Shown: piece by piece, positions 5,668 through 20,922 of the stretch
How positions within the stretch are numbered: position 1 is the stretch's first letter
Layout: each line of letters begins with the position of its first letter
NCBI GenBank assembly: GCA_016184305.1
Contig: JACPCX010000126.1
Location: forward strand, 1-20,922
From: Candidatus Rokuibacteriota bacterium
Lineage (GTDB): Bacteria > Methylomirabilota > Methylomirabilia > Rokubacteriales > CSP1-6
DNA length: 20,922 bases
Direction of reading: 5' to 3'
Notes under the pieces: model-generated
Seen by the model: the letters and a program-made list of their open reading frames with translations, nothing else
Databases searched by the model: none
What the model was told of the DNA's origin: nothing
Made by a program: the position numbers and the translations under genes

Positions 5668-8031
5668 TCAGCGGGGCCGGGTCTGCAGATATTGCCTGAT
5701 GGCCCGGTACTGGCTCTTGCCGTCGAGACCGGCCTCGGCCAGCACCATGTCGCCATGGCCGCTGCCCAGGAAGTGCCCGTGCTGGAAGGGGTGGAGCGTC
5801 ATGGACCGGCCGAGGTCGGAGCAGATCCAGCGGAACATGGTGGGCAACGTGAAGCCGGTGATGCCCATCGCCTCGAGGGCGCGCTCCTCGGGGAAGATGC
5901 GGCGCTGCGTCGCCTGGGGCAGGAGGTCGAATAGCTCGGCGCTCGCGACGTAGTAGACCCAGGGGTCGAGCCCGTCCTTCTCCAGCAGGGGCAGCGCCTC
6001 CTGCACGAACGCGTAGGTGACCGCGCTCTCCTGCAGCACCACGGTCCCGCCGCCCTGCCCACGGGGCCGGCGCAGAAGGTAGACGCCGGTGACCGCGTCT
6101 GCCGCGGACGCCAGGCCGAGCCGCGCCCGATCGAGGACGGTCTCGCTGGGGCGGGTGACGAAGGGCGCGATGATCGCGGGGCGCCGGGCCAGCGAGGCGG
6201 CGAGCAGCGGCCAGATCTCCTGCGGATCCCACGGCGTCAGCGTGATGGCCGTGCCCCGCGGGAAATTCTCCTGCAGGAGCTGGAGCGGCTGGGGATCGGC
6301 GTGGGTCGGCCCGTCCTCGCCTGTCTTGAGCCCGGCATGGGCGCAGACCACGATCATCGGCCGGTACGGATCTCCGGTGAGCGCCTGCCGTGCCTGGGCG
6401 CCGATGGCGTGCAGCCGCGCGGCGATGTGGCTGAGCGGCGCCATGAACGCGCCGTAGGACGAGCCCACGCCGATATGGTGGCCGAGGGTGGACAGCCCGG
6501 CAAGGATCCCCGACATCCCGTCCTCGCAGATGCCGCCGATGGACAGGATCCGCGCCCCGGGATTCGTCCTGGCATTCCAGTAGCCCTCCGCGAAGCCCGC
6601 TCCCACGGCGCTCACGCTCGTGGAGCTGAGGAGATCGGCGGCGGCGGCGAGGACCGCTCCCCCGGAGGCGCGGTTGTAGTGCCCCAGCGCGCGTCCAAGC
6701 TCGCCACGGAGGGTCGTGACCGTGCCGGGGGTGAGCGCGAGCGCGGAGGGCGTGGCCGGCCCCTTCGCCGCCAGCTCGTAGACGCCTTCCACCCGGGGCG
6801 CACCGGCCCGGGGGCGGCGGCTGCGCGTGTCGAGTCGGTCGCGCGCCGCGGCGAGCCGGGCCGCAAGCGCCTCCACCATGGCGCCGCTCTGCTCGAGGAC
6901 CTTGCGCACGACCGTGAGCGACTCCCAGAAGCATTCCTCGATGACGGCCGCTCCGTCGGGGGCCGACAGGCAGCGCCGCGTGCCGGCCTCGCAACTCGGC
7001 ACCATCAGATCCGCTCTCCCCGTCAGCTCTGCCACCGCCCGGCAGAAACCGTCGGAGCACATCTTGTGGCCGGCGCCATGCGAGGCCTTGCCCTCGACCC
7101 CGTACTGCCAGCCCTTCACCGTGCGGTAGACGACGGCCGTCGGCTGGCCGTTGTCCAGCGCGAGCGCGGCCTGCTGGGCGGCGGCGACCTGGCGGACGTC
7201 CTTCCCGTCGGGCACGACGACAACGTTCCAGTCGTGGAGGTGGAACAGCTCCGCCGGGCTCCATTGCACGTAGTCGCCTGGCTGACCGTCCTCGCGGCAG
7301 ACGCGGTTGGAGTCGATGGAGGCCTGGTTCCAGTCGAGGTGGACGATCGCGTTGTCGAGCGAGGCGGTGCCGGCCGCCGCCAGGGCCTCGGCCACGCGCC
7401 CGGGCGTGAGCCCGCCCTCGCCCTCGACGATGTGGACGCGCGGGGCATCGGCGCCGAAGTAGTCCCGCGCGCCCAAGGCGAGCCCCAGCGAGGAGGCGAC
7501 GCCCACGCCGGAGGCCCCGGTGGAGAGGCGGACGAAGGGGGTGGCCGGGGTCGGGTGGCCGTCGAGGGCCTTGGCTCCGAACGCCTCCACGAGCGGCGTC
7601 CTGACAATGGGGTTGCGGCGGAAACCCAGGAGATCCTCGAGGCGGAGCCGCTGCTTCACGTCCTTCGGCAGCAGGTCGGGAGCGGCGAGCCGGGCGATCT
7701 CGTCGCGGAGCGCCCACATCGCGTAGAGCCCCATGGCCTTGTGCCCGGCCGCGTAGGAGATGATGTCGGCGTCCTCCCGGTCGGGCTGCGCCAGGTCGTA
7801 GTCGAGCGCGTCGAAGAGGAGCGCGGCCACGATGCGTCCGGAGGAGATCGAGCCGCCCGGGTGGCCCGAGGTGGGCACGTAGTTGTAGAGGAGGGCGCAG
7901 AGTGAGCGGTAGACGAGGTCGAGGGTCTCCAGGTGGCCCACGTCTTCGGCGGTCAGCGGCGCGCGCCCGCTCGCAAGGAGATCTCCGACATCCGTGACGG
8001 TGGCGCGCCTCGACCCGAGCTGGAGTGCCAT
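5668..8031 (-). CDS. Transketolase-family ThDP enzyme (single chain, atypical)
   Basis: Motifs SGHPGGSIS, AGHK, LDGHP, STGASGVG, GEG...DWN, GICEDGM and HAGLKTGEDGPTH; SD GGAGG before ATG 8031. Confidence 0.88.
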   Translation of the reverse strand: MALQLGSRRATVTDVGDLLASGRAPLTAEDVGHLETLDLVYRSLCALLYNYVPTSGHPGGSISSGRIVAALLFDALDYDLAQPDREDADIISYAAGHKAMGLYAMWALRDEIARLAAPDLLPKDVKQRLRLEDLLGFRRNPIVRTPLVEAFGAKALDGHPTPATPFVRLSTGASGVGVASSLGLALGARDYFGADAPRVHIVEGEGGLTPGRVAEALAAAGTASLDNAIVHLDWNQASIDSNRVCREDGQPGDYVQWSPAELFHLHDWNVVVVPDGKDVRQVAAAQQAALALDNGQPTAVVYRTVKGWQYGVEGKASHGAGHKMCSDGFCRAVAELTGRADLMVPSCEAGTRRCLSAPDGAAVIEECFWESLTVVRKVLEQSGAMVEALAARLAAARDRLDTRSRRPRAGAPRVEGVYELAAKGPATPSALALTPGTVTTLRGELGRALGHYNRASGGAVLAAAADLLSSTSVSAVGAGFAEGYWNARTNPGARILSIGGICEDGMSGILAGLSTLGHHIGVGSSYGAFMAPLSHIAARLHAIGAQARQALTGDPYRPMIVVCAHAGLKTGEDGPTHADPQPLQLLQENFPRGTAITLTPWDPQEIWPLLAASLARRPAIIAPFVTRPSETVLDRARLGLASAADAVTGVYLLRRPRGQGGGTVVLQESAVTYAFVQEALPLLEKDGLDPWVYYVASAELFDLLPQATQRRIFPEERALEAMGITGFTLPTMFRWICSDLGRSMTLHPFQHGHFLGSGHGDMVLAEAGLDGKSQYRAIRQYLQTRPR

Positions 8032-8205
8032 GGCCTGTCCTCCCTCTCTCGATCTTCCGTCCAAGCGCGCTCCTGCCACAAGCGCCGATTCGTTCCCGGC
8101 CTTAGCCGTACGGACTAGAAACCCCCTCCAGACGACTCATGCGCCAGTCAGGAGGGAAGGCGTAGGGTGGCAGCAGACGCACATCAATAATCCTTGCGAG
8201 GGGGC

Positions 8206-9556: not shown

Positions 9557-9683
9557 AGGGGCAGGGTACCGCATACCCGGGCGTCAGCGCGCCGCCGCGG
9601 CGACTGCCTTCTTGTGGTCGAGCGATTCGTGCACCTGTCCCTGGTACTGCCGTTCGGTCACCTGCGGTGGCATGGGGGGAGCG

Positions 9684-10121
9684 TCAGCGGGGAGGCGCCG
9701 GCTCCGACCCGCCGGACGCGCCTGCGGCCTGTGGCTGGCGGGTGAGCAGCCCGGCGATGGATTCGAGCAGCCGCTCGCGCCGGGTGCCCGGGCCGAAGAT
9801 GGCGGCGGCGCCGAGCCGCGAGAGCTCGACCTTCATGTCGGGGGTGACCACGCCGCCGACCACCAGCGGCACGCGTCCCAGCCCCACGCCCTCGAGCGTC
9901 TGGCGCATGCGCCGGGTGGCGTAGACGGGGTCGCTGCTGAGACAGCTCACGCCCACCAGCTCGGCGTCTTCCTGGAGCGCGATCTGGGCCACGCGCTCCG
10001 GGGTGTTGTAGAGGCCCGCGTAGACCACTTCGTGTCCGCCCTCGCGCAGCCACCGGGCCACCGCCGTCACCCCGAGGTCGTGCGCGTCGCTGCCGAGCTT
10101 CGCCAGGACGATGCGCGCCAT
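9684..10121 (-). CDS. Cobalamin-binding small subunit of an acyl-CoA mutase
   Basis: AKLGSDAHDLG (DxHxxG base-off/His-on motif), GVSCLS, VVGG and FGPGT; 2 nt after the large-subunit stop. Confidence 0.93.
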   Translation of the reverse strand: MARIVLAKLGSDAHDLGVTAVARWLREGGHEVVYAGLYNTPERVAQIALQEDAELVGVSCLSSDPVYATRRMRQTLEGVGLGRVPLVVGGVVTPDMKVELSRLGAAAIFGPGTRRERLLESIAGLLTRQPQAAGASGGSEPAPPR

Positions 10122-10123
10122 GG

Positions 10124-11746
10124 CTAGCCCTCGACCGTGTGGCCGATGGCCTCGCCGAAGGTGCGGCACACCTCGCCGATGGTGGCGCCCGCCTCGACGG
10201 CCGCGAGGACGGGGGGCATCACGTTCTCGCCGGCCGCCGTCGCGCGGCGGAGCGCGTCGAGGGTCGGCTGGAGCGCCGGCGCCTGGCGGCGCGCGCGGTA
10301 CTCGCGGACGTAGCGCAGGCGCGCCTCTGGCATCTCCTGCTCATAGGCGAAGAACTCCATCTTCGGCTCCTCTGCTTCCTCGTCGCGGAAGCAGTTGACT
10401 CCCACGACCGGTTGATCGCCCGACTCCATCCGATCCATGTGCTCGACGCGCGCCTCCCGGATCTGTTGCTCCACCCAGCCGGCCTTGAACACGGAGACGA
10501 AGCCGCCCCGCGCCCGGATGTCGTCCATCATCGTGAGGATGTCGGCCTCGAGCCGGCCGGTCAGCCACTCCACGAGATGGGAGCCGCCCAGGGGGTCGGC
10601 GCTCTTGACCACGTTGGTCTCGTACCCGATCACCTGCTGGGTCCGGATCGAGAGGCGATGGGAGGCCTCCGAGGGGAGCGCGTACGCCTCGTCGTAGGAG
10701 GTCGTGTGGATGGACTGGCTGCCGCCCAGCACCGCCGCCAGCGTCTGGATGGCCGCGCGGACGATGTTGTTCAGCGGCTCCTGGGCCGTGAGCGGCAAGG
10801 CCGCGGTCTGGATGGCCGTGCGGAACCAGCACGAGCGGTCGTCCTTCGCGCCCAGGCGCTCCCGCATGAGACGGGCCCAGATCCGCCGCATGGCACGGAG
10901 CTTGGCCACCTCCTCGAAGAGGTCCATGTGGGCGGCGGTGAAGAAGGCCATCCGCTGGGCGAAGGCGTCCGCGTCGAGGCCACGCGCGATCAGCCGCTCC
11001 GCGTACTCGAGCGCGAGCGAGAGCGCGAAGGCCGCCTCCTGGATCGCGTTGATGCCTGTCTCGCGCATGTTGTAGGCGTTGACGTTCACGATGTTCCACC
11101 GGCGCATCTCGCGGGTGCAGTACTCCATGACGTCGAGCCCCACGCGCACGCTGAAATCGATGGGGAAGAAGTGCGTGATGGCCTGCTGCGTCGCGCCGGC
11201 GAGCTGCGTCAGGGCGCAGTTCATGATGGTGCCGATCAGGGCGGCCGGCGGGATCCCCCGCCGGCGCGCCACGGCCAGGTACATGGCGAGGAACGGGGCC
11301 GAGGCGGGAGGCTGGACGATGAGCGTGCTCGACACCCTGTCCAGCGGGATGCCGTCGAAGAGCTGTTCCATGTCTTCCAGCGTGGCGATGGAGGTGCCCT
11401 GGCGGCCGACCTCGCCCTCGAACAGCGGATGGTCCGGGTCGAAGCCGAGCTTGGTCGCCATGTCGGTGTCGATGTTGAGCCCGGTGGCGCCCTGGCGCAG
11501 CAGGTAGTGGAGCCGCTCGTTGGACTCCCGCGGCGTCCCGTAGCCGGACTGCTGCCGGCGGGTCCACAGCCGCTGCCGGTACATCTCCGTGTGGATCCCG
11601 CGGGTGAAGGGGTACTCGCCCGGGCGCTCGGCCGCCGCCGAGGGGCGGTGGGCGAGGAACGGCGGCAGCTCGATCCCCGACAGCGTGTTGAAGTCGGCGG
11701 GGCGCTCGCCCTCGAGGTACCGGTCAAACAGCCGATCCGTGCTCAT
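10124..11746 (-). CDS. Adenosylcobalamin-dependent acyl-CoA mutase, large (substrate-binding) subunit; substrate unknown
   Basis: PGEYPFTRGI, EGEVGRQG, FEEVAKLRAMRRIWA, QT..LTAQEPLNNIVR, AAVLGGSQSIHT.SYDEA, RTQQ, DPLGGS and VVGVN. Confidence 0.95.
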   Translation of the reverse strand: MSTDRLFDRYLEGERPADFNTLSGIELPPFLAHRPSAAAERPGEYPFTRGIHTEMYRQRLWTRRQQSGYGTPRESNERLHYLLRQGATGLNIDTDMATKLGFDPDHPLFEGEVGRQGTSIATLEDMEQLFDGIPLDRVSSTLIVQPPASAPFLAMYLAVARRRGIPPAALIGTIMNCALTQLAGATQQAITHFFPIDFSVRVGLDVMEYCTREMRRWNIVNVNAYNMRETGINAIQEAAFALSLALEYAERLIARGLDADAFAQRMAFFTAAHMDLFEEVAKLRAMRRIWARLMRERLGAKDDRSCWFRTAIQTAALPLTAQEPLNNIVRAAIQTLAAVLGGSQSIHTTSYDEAYALPSEASHRLSIRTQQVIGYETNVVKSADPLGGSHLVEWLTGRLEADILTMMDDIRARGGFVSVFKAGWVEQQIREARVEHMDRMESGDQPVVGVNCFRDEEAEEPKMEFFAYEQEMPEARLRYVREYRARRQAPALQPTLDALRRATAAGENVMPPVLAAVEAGATIGEVCRTFGEAIGHTVEG

Positions 11747-12368
11747 GGAAGCCTCCTTGGCCGAGGCCGCGCACCAGGTAGCGCGCGAAGGTCTCGCCGA
11801 TCTCCTTGGGGGTGCGCTCGCCGTCGGGTGAGTACCACCGGGGAATCCAGTTCATCGCGCCCAGCATCGCCAGGACGACCATCTTGGGATCGCAGGGGGC
11901 GAAGGCCTCGCTCGCGACTCCCTCCTCGACGATGCGCCTCAGCCGGCGCTCGTACTCGTCCCGCCGGCTGACGAGGTCGCGGTAGAGCCTGGGGGAGAGC
12001 ATGCCCTCCGTGAGCACGACGCACCCGTTGAGCCGGTCGGTGATGCCCTCGATGAAGTGCCGGAGCGCCACGTAGAGCTTGACGTCGGCCGGATCCGCCA
12101 GCGCCTCCGCCATCTGGACCCCCTCCATCGCGACATCGAGGGCCGTCGAGTGGCACTGGAAGATGATCTCCGCCTTGCCCTTGACGTAGTAGTACAGCGC
12201 CGCCTTGCTCACGCCCAGCTCGCGCGCGATGTCCCCCATCTTGGTGGCCTGATAGCCCTTGCGGTTGAAGCAGCGCGCGGCGCTCTGGAGGATGATCTCG
12301 AGGCGGACATTCCTCACGTGCTGGCGCGCGGCGCCGCGGTCGTTCCATCTCGCCTGCGGTTGACCCAT
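11724..12368 (-). CDS. TetR/AcrR-family regulator (KstR2/PaaR-like C-terminus)
   Basis: HTH FNRKGYQATKMGDIARELGVSKAALYYY and C-terminal GAMNWIPRWYSPDG; overlaps the mutase start by 23 nt. Confidence 0.93.
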   Translation of the reverse strand: MGQPQARWNDRGAARQHVRNVRLEIILQSAARCFNRKGYQATKMGDIARELGVSKAALYYYVKGKAEIIFQCHSTALDVAMEGVQMAEALADPADVKLYVALRHFIEGITDRLNGCVVLTEGMLSPRLYRDLVSRRDEYERRLRRIVEEGVASEAFAPCDPKMVVLAMLGAMNWIPRWYSPDGERTPKEIGETFARYLVRGLGQGGFHEHGSAV

Positions 12369-12544: not shown

Positions 12545-13849
12545 ATGGCGGAGCGCTTCGACTGCGTGGTGATCGGGGCCGGCATCGGCGGCCTGGCGGC
12601 CGCCGCCCGCCTCGCAGCGGCGGGGCTCCGCCCGCTGGTCGTGGAGGAGCGCGATCGCGTCGGGGGACGCTTCTCCTCGGTGGACGTGGAGGGCTTCCGC
12701 GTGAGCACCGGCGCCGTGGCCGTGGAGTGCGGCGGCGTGCTGGAAGAGACATTCCGCGTCGTCGACGCGCCGTTCGAGGTGAGGCGGCCGGAGCCGGCGG
12801 TGGTGTTCCGGATCGGCGGGAAGGACCGGAGCTTCGGCGGCGGGTGGCGGCAGATCTTCGAGATGTTCGTCACGCGCGGGGCGCGGATGCTGGCGGCCAT
12901 CCACGAGGAGGTCGGCCGCTCGGCCGTGGAGGGCGGGCTCTCGCTCAGGCAGTGGCTACTCGGGTACACGGAGCACGCGGTGCTGCACGGCATCTTCCAG
13001 TCGCTGGCCGCGTCCATCTTCGCGGTCAACGCCGACGAGATCCCCGCCCGCACGTTCTTCGAGCACTTCATGGCGCGCGGGGGGTTCAAGCGCTTCGGCT
13101 TCGCCCCGCATGGCTGCCTCGGGCTCGTGGAGCCCCTGGCCCGCGCCATCGAGGCCCGCGGCGGCGCCGTCTGGACCGGGAGCGCGGTGGAGCGGATCCT
13201 CGTGCGCGCCGGCGCGGTGGTGGGGGCCGTCTGCCGGCGGCAGGGCGCCGCGGTGGAGATTCCCGTGTCCGCCATCGTGAGCAACGCGGGCCCGCGGGAG
13301 ACCCTGGCGCTGCTGGACGAGGCGACCGTGCCCCGGGACTATCGCGAGCGGGTCGAGACCCGCGTCCGCCCCGCTGCCAATGTGGCCCTGTACTTCACGA
13401 GCAGCCGGCCCCTCGTGGCGGCCCCCGGGCTCGTGACGTTCGTCGAGGGGCAGCGGGTCTGCAACCTCGCCAACCTCGGCCAGCTCTGCCCCGAGCTGAC
13501 GCCGGGCGGCGAGCCGCTCTACGTCGCCTTCGGCGTGCCCCGGCCTTCGCTGGGCTCCTTCGATGCCGACGAGACCATCCGGCTGATGAAGGAGGATCTC
13601 GCGTCACAGGTGCCCGGGTTCACGGAGTCGGGGCGGGTGCTGACCGTGAGCGTGATGCGGGGGAGCTGGCCGGCACAGCGTGCCTGCGCCGGGCACGATC
13701 TGCCTCAGCGCACGCCCATCCGGGGGCTCTGGCATGTCGGCGACGGCGTGAAGCCGGCGGGGTGGGGCGGAGCCTCGGCCTGCGCCGAGAGCGCGAGGCT
13801 GGCCGTCCTGGGTCTGCTCGGGGGCCATAGGGTCTCGTCCGCTCGATGA
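12545..13849 (+). CDS. FAD-dependent oxidoreductase, phytoene desaturase-like (COG1233-type)
   Basis: DCVVIGAGIGG, E...RVGGR, STGA, IVSNAGP and TPIRGLWHVGDG...G...CAESA; SD GGAGG before ATG 12545. Confidence 0.9.
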   Translation: MAERFDCVVIGAGIGGLAAAARLAAAGLRPLVVEERDRVGGRFSSVDVEGFRVSTGAVAVECGGVLEETFRVVDAPFEVRRPEPAVVFRIGGKDRSFGGGWRQIFEMFVTRGARMLAAIHEEVGRSAVEGGLSLRQWLLGYTEHAVLHGIFQSLAASIFAVNADEIPARTFFEHFMARGGFKRFGFAPHGCLGLVEPLARAIEARGGAVWTGSAVERILVRAGAVVGAVCRRQGAAVEIPVSAIVSNAGPRETLALLDEATVPRDYRERVETRVRPAANVALYFTSSRPLVAAPGLVTFVEGQRVCNLANLGQLCPELTPGGEPLYVAFGVPRPSLGSFDADETIRLMKEDLASQVPGFTESGRVLTVSVMRGSWPAQRACAGHDLPQRTPIRGLWHVGDGVKPAGWGGASACAESARLAVLGLLGGHRVSSAR

Positions 13850-14991
13850 AGGCACAGCGCTATCCTCAACATTCGCCGTCGGGGAAGTTTCCAGATGGAC
13901 CGGCTCCGCGGTATTGATGCCCACGAACCCGGGGCAAAGGAGCACCTCGTGGCATTGGCATCGATCCCGCTGAGTTCCACGGTGACCGGAGTCCGCGCTG
14001 GCTGCTCCCGAGTCACCGGGCAGATCGAGTCCGCCGCCAGGGTGCCGGAGATCACGACCGCCTCGACGCCGGCGCCGGGGAAAACCCCCGCCCCGGCGAG
14101 GACGAGCCCCTCCACGGGCGACTTGATCGGCGGCTGCCACTGCCCGACTCCCGCGCCGTAGATCGCGCCGCCCGTGGTCCACGCGTAGCGGGCGAAGGTC
14201 GCGGGGCTGCCCTCCTGGCGATACACGATGTGGCCGCGCAGCCCGGGCAGCGCCTGCTCGGCCTCGGCGATGAGCGCATCTCCGAGGCTCCGCTTTTTCG
14301 CAGCGTAGCCGGGGGTCTTGCGCTTCCACGCCCCGCCGGCGATGGGCGGCATGAGCGTGATCAGGCTCACGCTGCTGTGACCCCGGGGGGCCAGCGACGG
14401 ATCGACCTTCGAGGGGATGGCGATGCCGAGCCGCCGCCCACCCGCGGCCAGCATGGTGATGGGCTCGACGTCGGGGACATAGTCGACGCCCAGGAACACG
14501 ACGAAGGCCGACGTCGATGGCCGGATATCGTCCACGCGGCGGGTGAAGTCCGGCGGCAGATGCTCACGGCCCACCAGGTCGAGGAAGGTGCGGCGGGCAT
14601 CCGCGTTGGAGACGATGGCCGCGGCCCGGTCCAGCCGGCCGTCGCCGGAGACGACGCCCGCCGCGCGGCCCTTGTCGACCACGATCCGCTGCACCGCCGT
14701 CCTGAGGCGGATCTCGCCCCCATGCGATCGGATGACGCCCGCGAGGGCGTCGGCCAGCGCCTGGGAGCCGCCGGCCGGATAGTAGCCCCCATCGAAGTAG
14801 TAGCCGAAGATCGGCGCCATGGCGAAGACCGTGAGTGTACGGGGATCGTCGCTCAGATAGCCGGTGAGCACCGAGAGGAAGTCCTTCAGGCGCGGGTCGA
14901 GGAAGTACCGGTCCAGCAATGCGCCGAAGGGGACGTGCATCCAGCGGAACGCGTGCGGGTGAAGCGCCGGATAGGCCAGCATGGCGTCCAC
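13705..14991 (-). pseudogene. N-terminally truncated phytoene-desaturase-family oxidoreductase
   Basis: Has GYYPAGGSQALADAL, VSNAD, SKVDPSLAP, SPATFARY..GGAIYG and GLVLAGAGVFPGAGV, but no GxGxxG FAD-binding start in frame upstream. Family-like sequence ends near 14000; the frame reads on and overlaps the opposite gene by 145 nt. Confidence 0.8.
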
Positions 14992-16648: not shown

Positions 16649-17599
16649 TCAGCCCCAGACGCCAGGGATCTTGGTCGCGCAGGAGGGGCAGGCGCCCCGG
16701 GTCTCGGTCAGGCGATCGCGCAGGATCCTGTATCCCTCGCGCTCGATGAGGAGCGTCTTGCAGGAGGGGCAGCACGTGTTCTCGAAGCGCCCGACCCGGC
16801 CGGGGAGGTTGCCGGCGTAGACGTAGCGGAGGCCCTCGCCGAGCCCGATCTCGGCGGCGCGGAGCACCGTCCTCGCGGGCGTGTCCTCGAGGTCCGTCAT
16901 CTTGTAGTCGCGGTGGAAGGCCGTGACGTGCCACGGGATGTCGGGGGAGACGGACACGAGGAAGCGCGCGAGCGCGCTGAGCTCCTCGTCGGAGTCGTTG
17001 TGCCCCGGCACCACCAGCGTGACGACCTCCGCCCAGAAGCCCCGGGCATGGAGCATGCGGATCGTGTCAAGCACCGTCTGCAGCACGCCGCCCAGCTTCC
17101 GGTACCGCCGGTCGTCGAAGCCCTTGAGGTCCACCTTGTAGAGGTCCACCCAGGGGCGCAGGAAGTCGAGCACCTCGGACGTCGCGTTCCCGTTCGACAC
17201 GTAGGAGCACGTGAGCCCCCGCGCCTTCCCTTCCTTGAAGATCTCCACCGCCCACTCGCTCGTGATGAGGGGCTCGTTGTAGGTGGAGGTGAGGACCCGC
17301 GCCCGGTGGCGGAGGGCCATGTCCACGATCTCGCGCGGGGTCACCTCCTGTGGCGGCGTGCCCGCGACGGGCTTCTTCTCGATGGGGTCGAGCTGCAGGC
17401 CGCCCACGTAGCCGGATGGCACCATCAGGCGGCCGTCCGCGTTGAAGCGCACCCGGCAGATGCCCCGCTGCCCCGGAGGGATCAGGCAGCGGTGGCCGCA
17501 GGCGTGGCAGCGCAACCGGGCCCCGGGGAGGCGCTCGTAGAGCTCGCCCTCCCGGGCGTGGCGCGAGAGGATCTGCTCGAGAGTTGCCGCGTGGGCCAT
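16649..17599 (-). CDS. amrS: AmmeMemoRadiSam radical SAM enzyme lacking the CxxxCxxC segment (probably inactive)
   Basis: CHACGHRC...GICRVR, DPIEKKP, TYNEP, VSNG, VDLK, PWHVTAFH and YVYAGN, plus C-terminal CPSC pairs; no CX3CX2C anywhere. Confidence 0.88.
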   Translation of the reverse strand: MAHAATLEQILSRHAREGELYERLPGARLRCHACGHRCLIPPGQRGICRVRFNADGRLMVPSGYVGGLQLDPIEKKPVAGTPPQEVTPREIVDMALRHRARVLTSTYNEPLITSEWAVEIFKEGKARGLTCSYVSNGNATSEVLDFLRPWVDLYKVDLKGFDDRRYRKLGGVLQTVLDTIRMLHARGFWAEVVTLVVPGHNDSDEELSALARFLVSVSPDIPWHVTAFHRDYKMTDLEDTPARTVLRAAEIGLGEGLRYVYAGNLPGRVGRFENTCCPSCKTLLIEREGYRILRDRLTETRGACPSCATKIPGVWG

Positions 17600-18070: not shown

Positions 18071-18274
18071 GTCGGCGACGGGATCGTGGACGAGCGCACT
18101 GGACGCCTCGACCTCTACGATCGCCTCCCCAACCGGACGGGGTACGGGCGGATCACACCCGGCGGCCCGGTGGACCTCTACGGGCTCGACGGGAGAAGGG
18201 CCTTGCCCTCCACACTGCGGTGCTCCGAGAGCACGAATGCCGGTTGCCCTACTCCAGCCGCACGGAGTCGGTGA
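18071..18274 (+). pseudogene. Fragment of an unrelated small beta-repeat protein
   Basis: VGDGIVDERTGRLDLYDRLPNRTGYGRITPGGPVDLYGLDGRR, with GACCTCTACG repeated at 18110-18119 and 18173-18182; no SD. Confidence 0.4.
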
Positions 18275-20922
18275 GTCCAAGTTCTTACGGAGTCGGTGAG
18301 TCCAAGTTCTTGGAGAATCTGACGGAGTTCCGACGCCAGGGCTCCCGCGCTCTCGACCTTGACCGTCACCGAGAAGTCCAGCCCGATCTTCAGCTCGGAG
18401 CCGGTTCGCAGCTTTGGCAGGATCTTCGTGCCGAGGCGGTTCCAGACCTCCGGTGGAACCGTGCCTACAAGACGCAGCGTCCTGGTCGCAGCGCCGGGCG
18501 CGGGTCCCGGCCCGGGTTCTGGGCCAGGCGCGGGCTTCGGCGTGATCGTGGGCCCCGGCTCGGGTTCCGGCGTCGGCGCGGGTGTGGCAGGCACTCCGCT
18601 CTTGAGCGCCTCTGCGGTAGCCTTCCTCAGCAGGAACACGCCAGCCTCAAAGGCCACCTCGTCCGGCGCCACGAGCTCCTGGAACCACAGTCGCTCACAG
18701 CTCCGGTCGGTCTTCAGGCCCGACGCCAGACCAAAGTCGCCCCGCCCGACGAACTCGACGATCTTGTTCTTCAGGATCGCGTCGGGGTCGACGAGACGCG
18801 TGAGCGAGCCGTTGAGGAAGCTCTGCCGTAGGCTCGCGAGCGGCCATGCTCCCGAGGTCCTGAGAGCCGGCGGCCAGTTGCGCTCGATGTAGCCGGCACC
18901 CACGGACTCATTGAGGAGCGCTTCCGACTTGAGGGCGGCGATGACCCGGCCACACAGCGTCTCGCCGCTCGACGAGTGCCCCGCGCCGAGGTCGATCACC
19001 TTGAGGCCATCCGCCTCCTGGCCATCCGCGACGACAGCAAAGCGGTAGTCGCCCCAAACCTCGTCCCTGGCGGCCCCCTCGGCGTCCTTGACCCTGGACT
19101 GGAGCTCCGCGCGATCGCTCTTGTCGAACTCACCACCGAGCGTGCCCTCGGCGACCTCCCTCGCCACCCGTTTCCACGCCAGCGACACCTCGATCTTCTC
19201 GCGCAGGTCCCGCCCGGGCTTCTTGAGGCACCAGACGAGCGCGCCCGGGTAGAGACGCGGCGACTTGCCGCGCTGGCGTGTCCACTCGGCAAGCTGGGCG
19301 CGCAGCGGTCCGCTGCCCGACCACTCGCCCTCGGGATCGGCCACGAGGAGCGTGAGCCGGGGCGTGTCGGGGATCTCCGCCCCGTCCCGAGGGAACGGCA
19401 CAACGGGAACGCTCGCCCCCCGCCGGAACTCCTCCTCGACGAGCCTCCGCAGGGCGGGCCTAACCTCCGTCTCCTCGTCGAGCGACGCGCGCCGGTCGCT
19501 CACCACCTTCTTCATCGTGGGCTGGTAGCCGATGCGGAACCCGTCCGACCCCGCCTTGCGAACGAAGTAGGACCGGCTCTCGAGCGCGGACGCGGCATTG
19601 TCGATGGACGTCGTGTCCAGCTCGGGCTCGCCGAGGGCGAAGCGCAGCTCGGGCAGGTGCGCGACCTTGTCGGTCTGCCCGCCCGACGACTCGAAGAGAA
19701 TGGTGGTGCCGACACGCCGGTGGATGTCGCGGAGTGGCCCCGTGGTGTCGGCGTCGAGCGCCTTGCTGTGCGACTGCTCACCGGCGATGTCCGTGTCGAT
19801 CGCGGCGACGAGGCGCGACTCGCCGAGCTGACCCAAGATGATGCTCCTGAAACCCGGCACCGCGAGCGGCGCCGATCCAAGGGTGATGAGCGGCTCGGTG
19901 CGCGCCTTCTTGAAGCTCTCCGGCGCGGCGATCGCGATCCACTGGGCCAGCATCGCGAGCGTGCCGCGCGTCTGCTGGTACTGCGACAGCGCCTGCCACT
20001 TGCGCTGGAAGACCGACAGCGTCGCCGGATGGAACGGGTAGCAGGCCTCGAAGCGGCGCTGAAGGAACTCGCGCGCCTTGGCCTCGGTCGCGGTCGTGTC
20101 GACCGCCGTCCACTCCGCCGGGAGCCGCGCCCGCCGCTCGAAGCACCAGTCGCCGAAGGCCTTGGCGACGTTCTTCCGGATCTTCTCGCTCCCCAGGTCC
20201 TGGAAGAGCCGCCGCCGGACGACCTCGCTGATCTCGGTCTCGTCATTGGCGATCAGGTCCTTGGCGACGCGCCGCACGACCTTCGCGATCCGGTCCTGCC
20301 ACTCCGTGTCCCTCGCGACGGTCAGGTTCTGGATGAAGGCGTGGAACGATTCGGCGCTCCCGCGGTGGCGGTTCAGGAAGTTGAGCACCTCGTCGAAGAG
20401 GAGGAGCACGGGCGCCCCGGCGGCCTGGAAGACCCGCGCGATCGCCTCGGTTCCGGGCGGCGTGGTCCGCGCCGCGGGCCCGAGCGCCTCGACGCCCTTG
20501 TCTCCCGCGAGCTGGCGGGCGATGTCGATCCACGGCGTCTCGCGGCCCGGCTGCGGATCCCACGCGTTGCCCACGAAGACGGCGACCCGTGCCTCCGGAA
20601 CCAAGGAGAGCCCAGCCTCCCGCAGCAGGTCGGAGACGCCGGTGAACGCGGCTGCCTGGTCCCCGCTCTTCGCCAGGTGATAGAGCACGGTCAGCGTGTG
20701 CGTCTTGCCGCCGCCGAACTGGGTGATGAGCGTCAGCACCGGCGCGGTGTTCTCGGTCTTGCCCGAGAGGCGGCGCAGCACCATGCCGGCGTGCTCGCGC
20801 AGCGCCCGCGTGAAGCAGGTGCGGGCGAAGAACTGGGCCGGATCGCGATAGTCCTCCGGCGCCGTCCCGGCCACGACCTGCTCGAGGGCGATGGCGAACT
20901 CGTCCGGGTTGAACGAGCGGCC
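18178..20922 (-). CDS. DUF499 family AAA+ ATPase (5' end outside window)
   Basis: Frame open to the right edge (GRSFNPDEFAIALEQVVAGTAPEDY). Walker A TQFGGGKTH, Walker B LLLFDE, EVVRRRLF, CYPFHP and QQTRGTL, then a Pro-rich linker and small C-terminal domain. Confidence 0.92.
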   Translation of the reverse strand, partial: GRSFNPDEFAIALEQVVAGTAPEDYRDPAQFFARTCFTRALREHAGMVLRRLSGKTENTAPVLTLITQFGGGKTHTLTVLYHLAKSGDQAAAFTGVSDLLREAGLSLVPEARVAVFVGNAWDPQPGRETPWIDIARQLAGDKGVEALGPAARTTPPGTEAIARVFQAAGAPVLLLFDEVLNFLNRHRGSAESFHAFIQNLTVARDTEWQDRIAKVVRRVAKDLIANDETEISEVVRRRLFQDLGSEKIRKNVAKAFGDWCFERRARLPAEWTAVDTTATEAKAREFLQRRFEACYPFHPATLSVFQRKWQALSQYQQTRGTLAMLAQWIAIAAPESFKKARTEPLITLGSAPLAVPGFRSIILGQLGESRLVAAIDTDIAGEQSHSKALDADTTGPLRDIHRRVGTTILFESSGGQTDKVAHLPELRFALGEPELDTTSIDNAASALESRSYFVRKAGSDGFRIGYQPTMKKVVSDRRASLDEETEVRPALRRLVEEEFRRGASVPVVPFPRDGAEIPDTPRLTLLVADPEGEWSGSGPLRAQLAEWTRQRGKSPRLYPGALVWCLKKPGRDLREKIEVSLAWKRVAREVAEGTLGGEFDKSDRAELQSRVKDAEGAARDEVWGDYRFAVVADGQEADGLKVIDLGAGHSSSGETLCGRVIAALKSEALLNESVGAGYIERNWPPALRTSGAWPLASLRQSFLNGSLTRLVDPDAILKNKIVEFVGRGDFGLASGLKTDRSCERLWFQELVAPDEVAFEAGVFLLRKATAEALKSGVPATPAPTPEPEPGPTITPKPAPGPEPGPGPAPGAATRTLRLVGTVPPEVWNRLGTKILPKLRTGSELKIGLDFSVTVKVESAGALASELRQILQELGLTDSVRTWTHRLRAAGVGQPAFVLSEHRSVEGKALLPSSP
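18262..18311. repeat. Perfect 25-bp tandem duplication
   Basis: ACGGAGTCGGTGAGTCCAAGTTCTT at 18262-18286 and 18287-18311. Confidence 0.97.

Follow-up and report, generated by a model that had tools for sequence, protein, structure and literature searches.

The window analysed here, positions 1 to 20,922 of contig JACPCX010000126.1 of a Candidatus Rokuibacteriota bacterium (assembly GCA_016184305.1), carries an intact gene for the large, substrate-binding TIM-barrel subunit of an acyl-CoA mutase (10124..11746, minus strand; 540 aa), sited between a TetR gene and the gene for a B12-binding small subunit. Judged by its sequence, the product is a member of the PF01642 family that lies outside each named class tested, and very probably it is an active mutase whose substrate is new to the family. 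The best explanation, to which we give about an even chance, is that the two subunits form an adenosylcobalamin (AdoCbl) mutase that would straighten the chain of an alpha-branched aromatic acyl-CoA, giving the linear 3-arylpropionyl-type isomer, and thereby feed the benzoyl-CoA pathway.

Substrate pocket and phylogenetic position

The scaffold is intact, as an earlier note on this DNA had held: PF01642 aligns over 2-511/512 at 560 bits, nearly its full profile, and all motifs quoted in that note are found. TIGR00641 scores over its cut-off (514 bits); the plus-strand frame across 10124-11746 is a shadow open reading frame. The equivalog models stay far under their cut-offs, at 424 vs 876 for PRK09426 (methylmalonyl-CoA mutase, MCM) and 247 vs 1500 for IcmF, both of which describe longer proteins, PRK09426 with the B12 domain included. 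The closest PDB entry by sequence is 4R3U HcmA, of 2-hydroxyisobutyryl-CoA mutase (HCM), at 412 bits, and IcmF is the weakest match among the PDB catalytic subunits, at 203 bits. An AlphaFold model built from a 45-sequence alignment (pLDDT 80.6, pTM 0.87) matches the HCM, MCM and IcmF catalytic subunits in Foldseek at TM 0.81-0.86, the best again being 4R3U HcmA (TM 0.86, 39% identity); an ESM Atlas search with the mutase gave hits at family level only.

Pocket residues were mapped by counting positions along HMMER alignments to PDB 1REQ_A (MCM) and 4R3U_A (HCM), and conservation was read from an alignment of the query with the best 120 of 7662 matches (57-97% identity), one of which lacks the N-terminal part. 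The residues that we take to generate the radical and bind CoA in this family (MCM Gln330, Tyr243, Glu370 and Arg87) are retained: their equivalents are Gln313 (120/121), Tyr225 (118/121, Arg in 3), Glu353 (10688..10690, minus strand; 121/121), presumably the residue that activates the Co-C bond, and Arg64 (120/120), presumably a CoA-binding residue. The MCM carboxylate site, assumed to be Tyr89, Gln197 and Arg207, is absent. Gln66 (120/120), within the same WTRRQQSG motif as Arg64 (11543..11566, minus strand), stands at Tyr89 (HCM Ile90), and Met175 (117/121) at Gln197 (HCM Gln198). Because of a 4-residue insertion within segment 178-192, the substitute for Arg207 is ambiguous, being Ala189 in the MCM alignment and Ala185 in the HCM alignment; both columns are free of Arg throughout the 121 aligned sequences, and most of the clade has Pro at 185 (110/121). 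Asn226 (11069..11071, minus strand; 121/121) replaces His244, which in MCM is presumably needed for thioester migration and radical protection; Ala311 (121/121) replaces His328, and Thr349 (120/121) replaces Asn366. The alignments agree with the earlier note, which had placed Gln66 at Tyr89 from the motif WTRRQQSGYG, had seen Gln197 and Arg207 lost together with a short insertion, and had read Asn, Ala and Thr for His244, His328 and Asn366. Its mapping of Asp93 (11468..11470, minus strand) to MCM Ala116 and HCM Asp117 also stands, although the residue, Asp in 113 and Asn in 7 of 120 sequences, is not invariant.

The pocket markers of other classes are mostly missing as well. Position 89, assumed to be Phe in isobutyryl-CoA mutase (ICM) and Leu in pivalyl-CoA mutase (PCM), is Gln66, as is the counterpart of HCM Ile90; ethylmalonyl-CoA mutase presumably combines Tyr89 and Arg207 with a pocket enlarged at 328/366, and the window mutase has neither residue. 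The HCM marker Asp117 is present, as Asp93. With Tyr89 and Arg207 gone there would be no site for a second carboxylate, and the 89/207/328 space is predicted to be lined by Gln66, Asp93, Ile143, Met175 and Ala311; the two losses fit a bulkier monocarboxylic acyl group. The lack of Arg at the 207 position throughout the clade argues against a dicarboxylic substrate of the IaaGH or alkylsuccinyl type. The invariant Arg63 was considered as a substitute carboxylate ligand and rejected by reasoning from its position: it aligns with Ile86, between the inward-facing Thr85, Arg87 and Tyr89, and WTRR recurs in unrelated lineages. The earlier note's proposal of a new mutase for a bulkier, non-dicarboxylic acyl-CoA accords with this pocket, while its further guess, a hydroxylated substrate, draws on the variable Asp93 by itself.

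These substitutions mark a lineage. Asn91 (120/120) and Gln181, Gly184, Asn221, Asn223, Phe269 and His347 (121/121) are invariant too, and dN/dS of the mutase against congeneric copies is 0.22 (L011), 0.16 (L016) and 0.13 (L162). A FastTree phylogeny of 88 sequences combined the query with 18 clade members, 60 of 150 representatives (less fragments and long fusions), five own-genome paralogues and four plasmid references; characterised ethylmalonyl-CoA mutase, ICM, PCM and IaaH are not among them, and Rhizobium BhbA and Tyr/Arg-type sequences are the references on the MCM side. The clade is monophyletic (support 1.0), sister to three lineages that likewise read NAYN, and nested in a bigger His244-less group (support 1.0) that includes an own-genome paralogue on contig C195. 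The HCM references and the own-genome C153 paralogue form a separate clade elsewhere (support 1.0), and the Phe-type, ICM-like paralogue C9 is also placed elsewhere. The earlier note would have given up its claim for a protein inside a characterised clade or for substitutions private to one copy: the tree rules out membership in the HCM or MCM clade, and conservation in 120 homologues under purifying selection (dN/dS 0.13-0.22) rules out decay or private changes.

How odd this pocket is depends on the family as a whole. Among the best 150 representatives at 50% clustering, 142 cover the four key columns of an automatic alignment; the canonical set (Tyr/Phe/Ile89, His244, His328, Asn366) is found in 29 of them, and the 244 position is His in 74 and another residue in 68, Asn in 21. 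By this survey, odd pockets are the norm among divergent family members and the clade is one well-defined lineage among dozens, so its pocket is less surprising than it looks. The genome itself has 13 PF01642 matches, with MCM-, ICM- and HCM-type copies by motif (the HCM-type one, C153, reads WTMRQIAG/GLSVDFD), and the housekeeping reactions are therefore already covered.

Several copies diverge further. A sub-lineage reading NSRN instead of NAYN (Tyr243 replaced by Arg) makes up 8/32 locus copies (L062, L178, L179, L064, L164, L165, L180 and L181), and in three of these loci NSRN and NAYN copies stand in tandem (L062:5792-11611, L178:7391-12644, L179:7253-12589), which suggests two specificities or two steps per operon. 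The clade paralogues P0356 and P0357 are both listed on one contig of 168,089 bases, a probable two-copy locus. On contig C195 of the window's own genome, 3863-8111, lies a second cassette of TetR, mutase, small-subunit and CoA-ligase genes, whose mutase (WTRREVCG, NAYD) comes from the same His244-less radiation and whose TetR is 52% identical to that of the window.

The operon, its aromatic link and rival readings

The small-subunit gene (9684..10121, minus strand; PF02310, and TIGR00640 over cut-off) starts 2 bases past the large-subunit stop and encodes a DAHDLG (DxHxxG) and an SCL motif; among small subunits from clade loci DxH is kept in 32/32 and the full DxHxxG in 30/32. The TetR-family regulator (TetR_N and TetR_C_24 by Pfam; 11724..12368, minus strand) overlaps the mutase start and is likely the operon's acyl-CoA-sensing repressor; a convincing TetR operator was sought and none was found. 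An Rfam scan of the window gave no match, and hence no B12 riboswitch. MeaB (on contig C76) and a PduO-like adenosyltransferase are encoded elsewhere in the genome.

Neighbourhoods were tallied by hand over 32 loci, many ended by contig edges, from script-called and clustered genes. A small subunit is found in 30 of them, TetR beside the mutase in 20, a TRAP transporter in 10, a FadD-type CoA ligase in nine, an MmgE/PrpD protein in nine, a PaaK-type ligase in six, MeaB in four, a bcrB copy or scar in four and an adjoining 2-oxoacid oxidoreductase in two. The FadD-type ligases form one orthologous group (53-75% mutual identity), as do the MmgE/PrpD proteins (44-82%), whose best match is iminodisuccinate epimerase, presumably an alpha-proton-abstracting enzyme. 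The PaaK-type ligase and MmgE/PrpD never share a locus, and the two modules, one with the PaaK-type ligase and one with MmgE/PrpD and a ligase, are mutually exclusive in five whole genomes. Mutases from the two kinds of locus are intermingled in the locus tree and have near-identical pockets, so the modules would seem to be two ways of delivering one kind of substrate. Few downstream enzymes are encoded in these short operons, which is what one would expect of an adaptor that supplies a housekeeping pathway. A 47.5% orthologue of the operon MmgE/PrpD occurs in a cultured host, on the Rhodococcus rhodochrous plasmid pNit (L203:14001-15380), beside an MFS transporter and with no mutase in the annotated stretch.

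One aromatic link lies just behind the window's small-subunit gene, where a 29-codon in-frame scar (9584..9673, minus strand; first 17 and last 12 residues) remains of a duplicated benzoyl-CoA reductase subunit B-like (bcrB) gene; an identical scar is present in metagenome locus L061. In L016 and L162 the small subunit is followed by a full-length copy, in L011 by an internally deleted one. The operon BcrB copies are 79-80% identical to a second copy found in all four genomes of the genus, which in the window's own genome (G000) lies on contig C123 in a bcr/phenylacetate gene cluster. That cluster (G000:C123:29438-47275, L201) holds BcrC/B/A/D-, Dch-, BadH- and PaaK-like, molybdopterin oxidoreductase and 2-oxoacid oxidoreductase genes and resembles those for anaerobic phenylacetate and benzoyl-CoA degradation. 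The oxidoreductase subunits encoded after the mutase in L063 (alpha, beta and gamma; gamma also in L166) find their best own-genome match on C123, at 35-45%, and stand nearer PorA/PorB than Pad in NCBIfam.

The ligases and binding proteins point in the same direction. A PaaK-family ligase follows the small subunit in 6/32 loci, of Desulfobacterota type and probably alphaproteobacterial; the best PDB matches are phenylacetate-CoA ligases, and in five genomes tested the orthologue occurs only beside the mutase. Eight further pairs of clade mutase and ligase matches lie on contigs that agree in length within 1 base, an indirect sign of linkage. Both PaaK-type groups have altered pockets (GAEP to GG(E/Q), IYG to TYG), at sites where 2-hydroxyisobutyryl-CoA ligase also differs (SGEPG/DCG). 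These changes, like the MmgE/PrpD partner, speak for a branch at the alpha-carbon of the substrate. A 61% identical orthologue of the L073 ligase lies in a Variovorax paa-like cluster that also encodes an indolepyruvate oxidoreductase and a binding protein of ABC type, among whose close PDB relatives are phenylpyruvate, coumarate and caffeate binders; the top PDB matches of the operon DctP include Dde_0634, a benzoate binder and a mandelate binder. The ligands of these solved proteins, which for Dde_0634 are D-Trp, indolepyruvate and indoleacetate, are those given in PMC10443332. Finally, oah or had is present in 18/19 mutase-bearing genomes of two Desulfobacterota groups, had being over cut-off in two of the three oah-negative hosts.

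The Variovorax plasmid clusters, which have the ligase without a mutase, also encode MaoC, crotonase, thiolase/OB-fold and reductase proteins, with PaaN in one of the two. In both (L204:14691-16743, L202:15430-17482) the PaaK-like ligase is accompanied by an unannotated 339-aa protein with two ExxH motifs by eye, which has no Pfam or PDB match, and by a 2Fe-2S/FAD reductase, possibly an undescribed pathway with a diiron aryl-CoA oxygenase.

A number of observations weigh against an aromatic substrate. The bcrB link is confined to a single genus, and in 2/4 of its genomes, this one included, the gene is decaying; the window operon itself encodes neither a ligase nor a transporter; and the C123 proteins all fall under NCBIfam cut-offs. 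Inside host lineages no enrichment of oah accompanies the mutase (16/19 vs 210/278, Fisher p = 0.58, with kin not independent), and G447 has no benzoyl-CoA marker. The DctP type is weak evidence because its group is expanded genome-wide in G509, where it takes in 15/18 DctPs at >=37% identity; it is rarer in G411 and G252. PaaK-family ligases include the aliphatic 2-hydroxyisobutyryl-CoA ligase, the FadD-type ligase is about one third identical to anything solved, with feruloyl-CoA synthetase and FadD5 scoring alike, and the probably alphaproteobacterial loci are two only, near-identical.

These observations leave room for a bulky non-aromatic acid, alicyclic, terpenoid or with a quaternary carbon, rearranged by an active mutase in the manner of PCM (e.g., 1-methylcyclohexanecarbonyl- to cyclohexylacetyl-CoA), an alternative of modest probability. 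The loss of Tyr89, Arg207 and His328 and the gain of Ile143 and Met175 would suit such a substrate, as would the Leu at 89 in the sister lineage P0124, the residue we assume for PCM, the silence of the FadD-type ligase on aromatics and the null oah co-occurrence control. It leaves unexplained the BcrB duplicate in the operon, the ligase orthologue in an aromatic context and the conserved polar Gln66, Asn91 and Asp93, and an alpha-proton-abstracting partner would be hard to reconcile with a quaternary substrate. On balance, the substrate is more likely aromatic than aliphatic.

In the aromatic reading, a TRAP system would import the free acid; in one module the MmgE/PrpD protein would racemise or hydrate it at its acidic alpha-carbon, and a dedicated ligase would form the CoA ester. 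In this family the 5'-deoxyadenosyl radical abstracts hydrogen from the carbon adjoining the thioester-bearing one; here it would take hydrogen off the branch carbon, and a 1,2-shift would linearise the chain. Housekeeping beta-oxidation would then yield an aroyl-CoA, reduced in this genus with the dedicated BcrB copy. The outline of radical formation from AdoCbl, hydrogen abstraction, 1,2-shift and hydrogen return follows PMC10481361. An aryl group with a methyl or hydroxymethyl branch would be the simplest substrate to fit a ligase of arylacetate type with a widened pocket, the alpha-proton-abstracting partner and the aroyl-CoA reductase together.

The even chance given to this reading is divided among three candidate reactions. 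Conversion of 2-arylpropionyl- to 3-arylpropionyl-CoA is the foremost, if tentative; that of a tropyl-type ester (3-hydroxy-2-arylpropionyl-CoA) to aryl-lactyl-CoA is slightly less likely, would give Asp93 a role and would agree with the 2-oxoacid oxidoreductases (L063, L166) and with a LarA-family racemase close to one locus (L183); that of atrolactyl- to 3-hydroxy-3-arylpropionyl-CoA is doubtful. If the aryl ring migrated rather than the thioester, His244 would be dispensable across the clade. The boldest version, a first B12 mutase that would act on alpha-branched aryl acids (2-arylpropionates, which have the profen skeleton, or acids of the tropate type) and move the ring by a neophyl-type 1,2-aryl shift, is a long shot.

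The reading nearest to the earlier note's guess is an HCM-like one, with Asp93 binding the heteroatom of a small hydroxy- or amino-branched acid (2-hydroxy-2-methylbutyryl- or 2-aminoisobutyryl-CoA). Asp93 does align with HCM Asp117, HcmA is the best PDB match, and the layout of ligase, mutase and MeaB resembles the HCM cluster of Mycobacterium sp. ELW1. Yet the tree sets the clade well apart from HCM, the genome already has the HCM-type paralogue C153, Asp93 is Asn in 7/120, and a C4-C5 acid would hardly need a much-enlarged pocket; this reading is rather unlikely.

Less probable still is a B12 radical enzyme that shifts no carbon skeleton (and catalyses an elimination or a heteroatom shift instead), or a non-catalytic partner subunit. 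Such a protein might do without His244, to which we ascribe the role in thioester migration and radical protection, and the sub-lineage with Tyr243 replaced by Arg (8/32 locus copies) and the tandem clade copies at L062, L178 and L179 could be read in the same way; however, at most loci a single copy is paired with a small subunit, the equivalents of Glu370, Gln330, Arg87 and Phe287 are kept, His244 is missing in 68/142 divergent representatives, its loss being widely tolerated, and no dehydratase-type reactivase is seen nearby. Ordinary MCM, ICM or HCM activity with odd residues, or a decaying paralogue, is very improbable and largely refuted: gene decay does occur on the contig (the bcrB scar, and a radical SAM gene that has been shortened internally), but the substitutions are invariant over 120 homologues with dN/dS of 0.13-0.22, MCM-, ICM- and HCM-type paralogues are found elsewhere in the genome, and the equivalog scores are far under cut-off.

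Distribution and further genes of the window

The clade counts at least 120 sequence clusters. Its named members are proteins from metagenome-assembled genomes or metagenomes, from Rokubacteria, Alphaproteobacteria and records titled Desulfobacteraceae, Syntrophorhabdaceae and Deltaproteobacteria, and they come from uncultured bacteria of groundwater, sediment, peat and marine settings. A clade-specific DNA pattern occurs in 4/251 genomes of the window's phylum, all of the same genus, in 12/201 of the order of G251, in 7/96 of the class of G255 and in 3/401 of an even sample of the latter's phylum, two of these being seed genomes; in another phylum it was found in 0/79 genomes. A metagenome scan returned mostly non-clade mutases, with 7/79 loci at >=52% identity. 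Viral contigs yielded no clade member, and the 432 plasmid records with a match include no cultured or mobile one (best 43.9% identity). Among fusions of 946-2700 aa there was one match, at 43% identity and outside the clade's identity range, which is weak evidence.

Divergent from the operon, at 12545..13849 on the plus strand, lies a phytoene-desaturase-like FAD oxidoreductase gene. It was weighed as a pathway member and left out: it stands beside the operon only within this genus (4/32 loci, all Rokubacteria). A second phytoene-desaturase-like flavoprotein gene (13705-14991, minus strand) covers the C-terminal two thirds of the profile only; its counterparts in L011 and L162 encode proteins of 713-726 aa that carry a membrane segment at the N-terminus. 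The AmmeMemoRadiSam radical SAM gene (16649-17599, minus strand) encodes 316 aa vs 353 aa in L011, apparently without an internal stretch after IEKKP, and the adjoining Memo-like gene matches half its profile only. A large DUF499-type ATPase gene (18178-20922, minus strand) runs past the window end, is absent at the matching L011 position and is possibly an inserted element. On the other side of the operon, 5668-8079 (minus strand) encodes a single-chain transketolase-like protein of about 790-800 aa, conserved in the genus and with weak Pfam scores.

Significance and comparison with known systems

To our knowledge, only a handful of acyl-CoA mutase reactions have been characterised, each a new radical rearrangement useful in biodegradation and biocatalysis. 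A literature search, largely without subscription papers, found no account of the clade or of a mutase for 2-arylpropionyl-, tropyl- or atrolactyl-CoA. If the substrate is aryl-branched, the enzyme would fill a gap in the oxygen-independent breakdown of alpha-branched aromatic acids, and a 2-arylpropionate mutase would let anaerobes begin to degrade 2-arylpropionates without oxygen. Should the enzyme prove active with Asn in place of His244, and in some members with Arg in place of Tyr243, it would also test the accepted role of His244 in thioester migration. The compact operon offers a ligase, a transporter and a regulator for screening, and so makes the substrate directly findable. The family holds dozens of comparably unassigned lineages, which tempers the significance of this one.

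Compared with MCM (P. shermanii 1REQ, human MMUT, rhizobial BhbA), the window mutase shares the TIM barrel, the equivalents of Arg87, Phe287, Gln330, His364 and Glu370, and a B12 domain with DxHxxG; it differs in that Tyr89, Gln197, Arg207, His244, His328 and Asn366 are all replaced and the B12 domain is on a separate gene. With IcmAB it has in common what we take to be a two-gene layout. With IcmAB/IcmF and PCM it would share the type of reaction, branched to linear on a monocarboxylic substrate (for the IcmF reactions, see PMC10481361), and it differs from them in having Gln, not Phe or Leu, at 89. IaaGH of Aromatoleum aromaticum, acting on phenylsuccinyl-CoA/benzylmalonyl-CoA, and the hexylmalonyl-CoA mutase MatBQ/ActD are likewise two-subunit B12 mutases, whose substrates bear aryl groups or long chains; the products of IaaGH enter the benzoyl-CoA pathway (PMC8360864, PMC5719088). 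The substrates of both IaaGH (PMC8360864) and MatBQ/ActD are dicarboxylic, whereas the clade lacks Arg at 207.

HcmAB (4R3U; Methylibium petroleiphilum PM1 and the plasmid copies of Mycobacterium sp. ELW1) is alike in its split large and small subunits, its monocarboxylic substrate, its Asp at the 117 position and the ligase and MeaB in its gene cluster. The window mutase departs from it in Gln for Ile90, Met for Gln198, Asn for His, Ala and Thr at His328 and Asn366, and the 4-residue insertion. The two clades are separate and distant, and TetR, MmgE/PrpD, TRAP and bcrB neighbours lie on the side of the window's clade.

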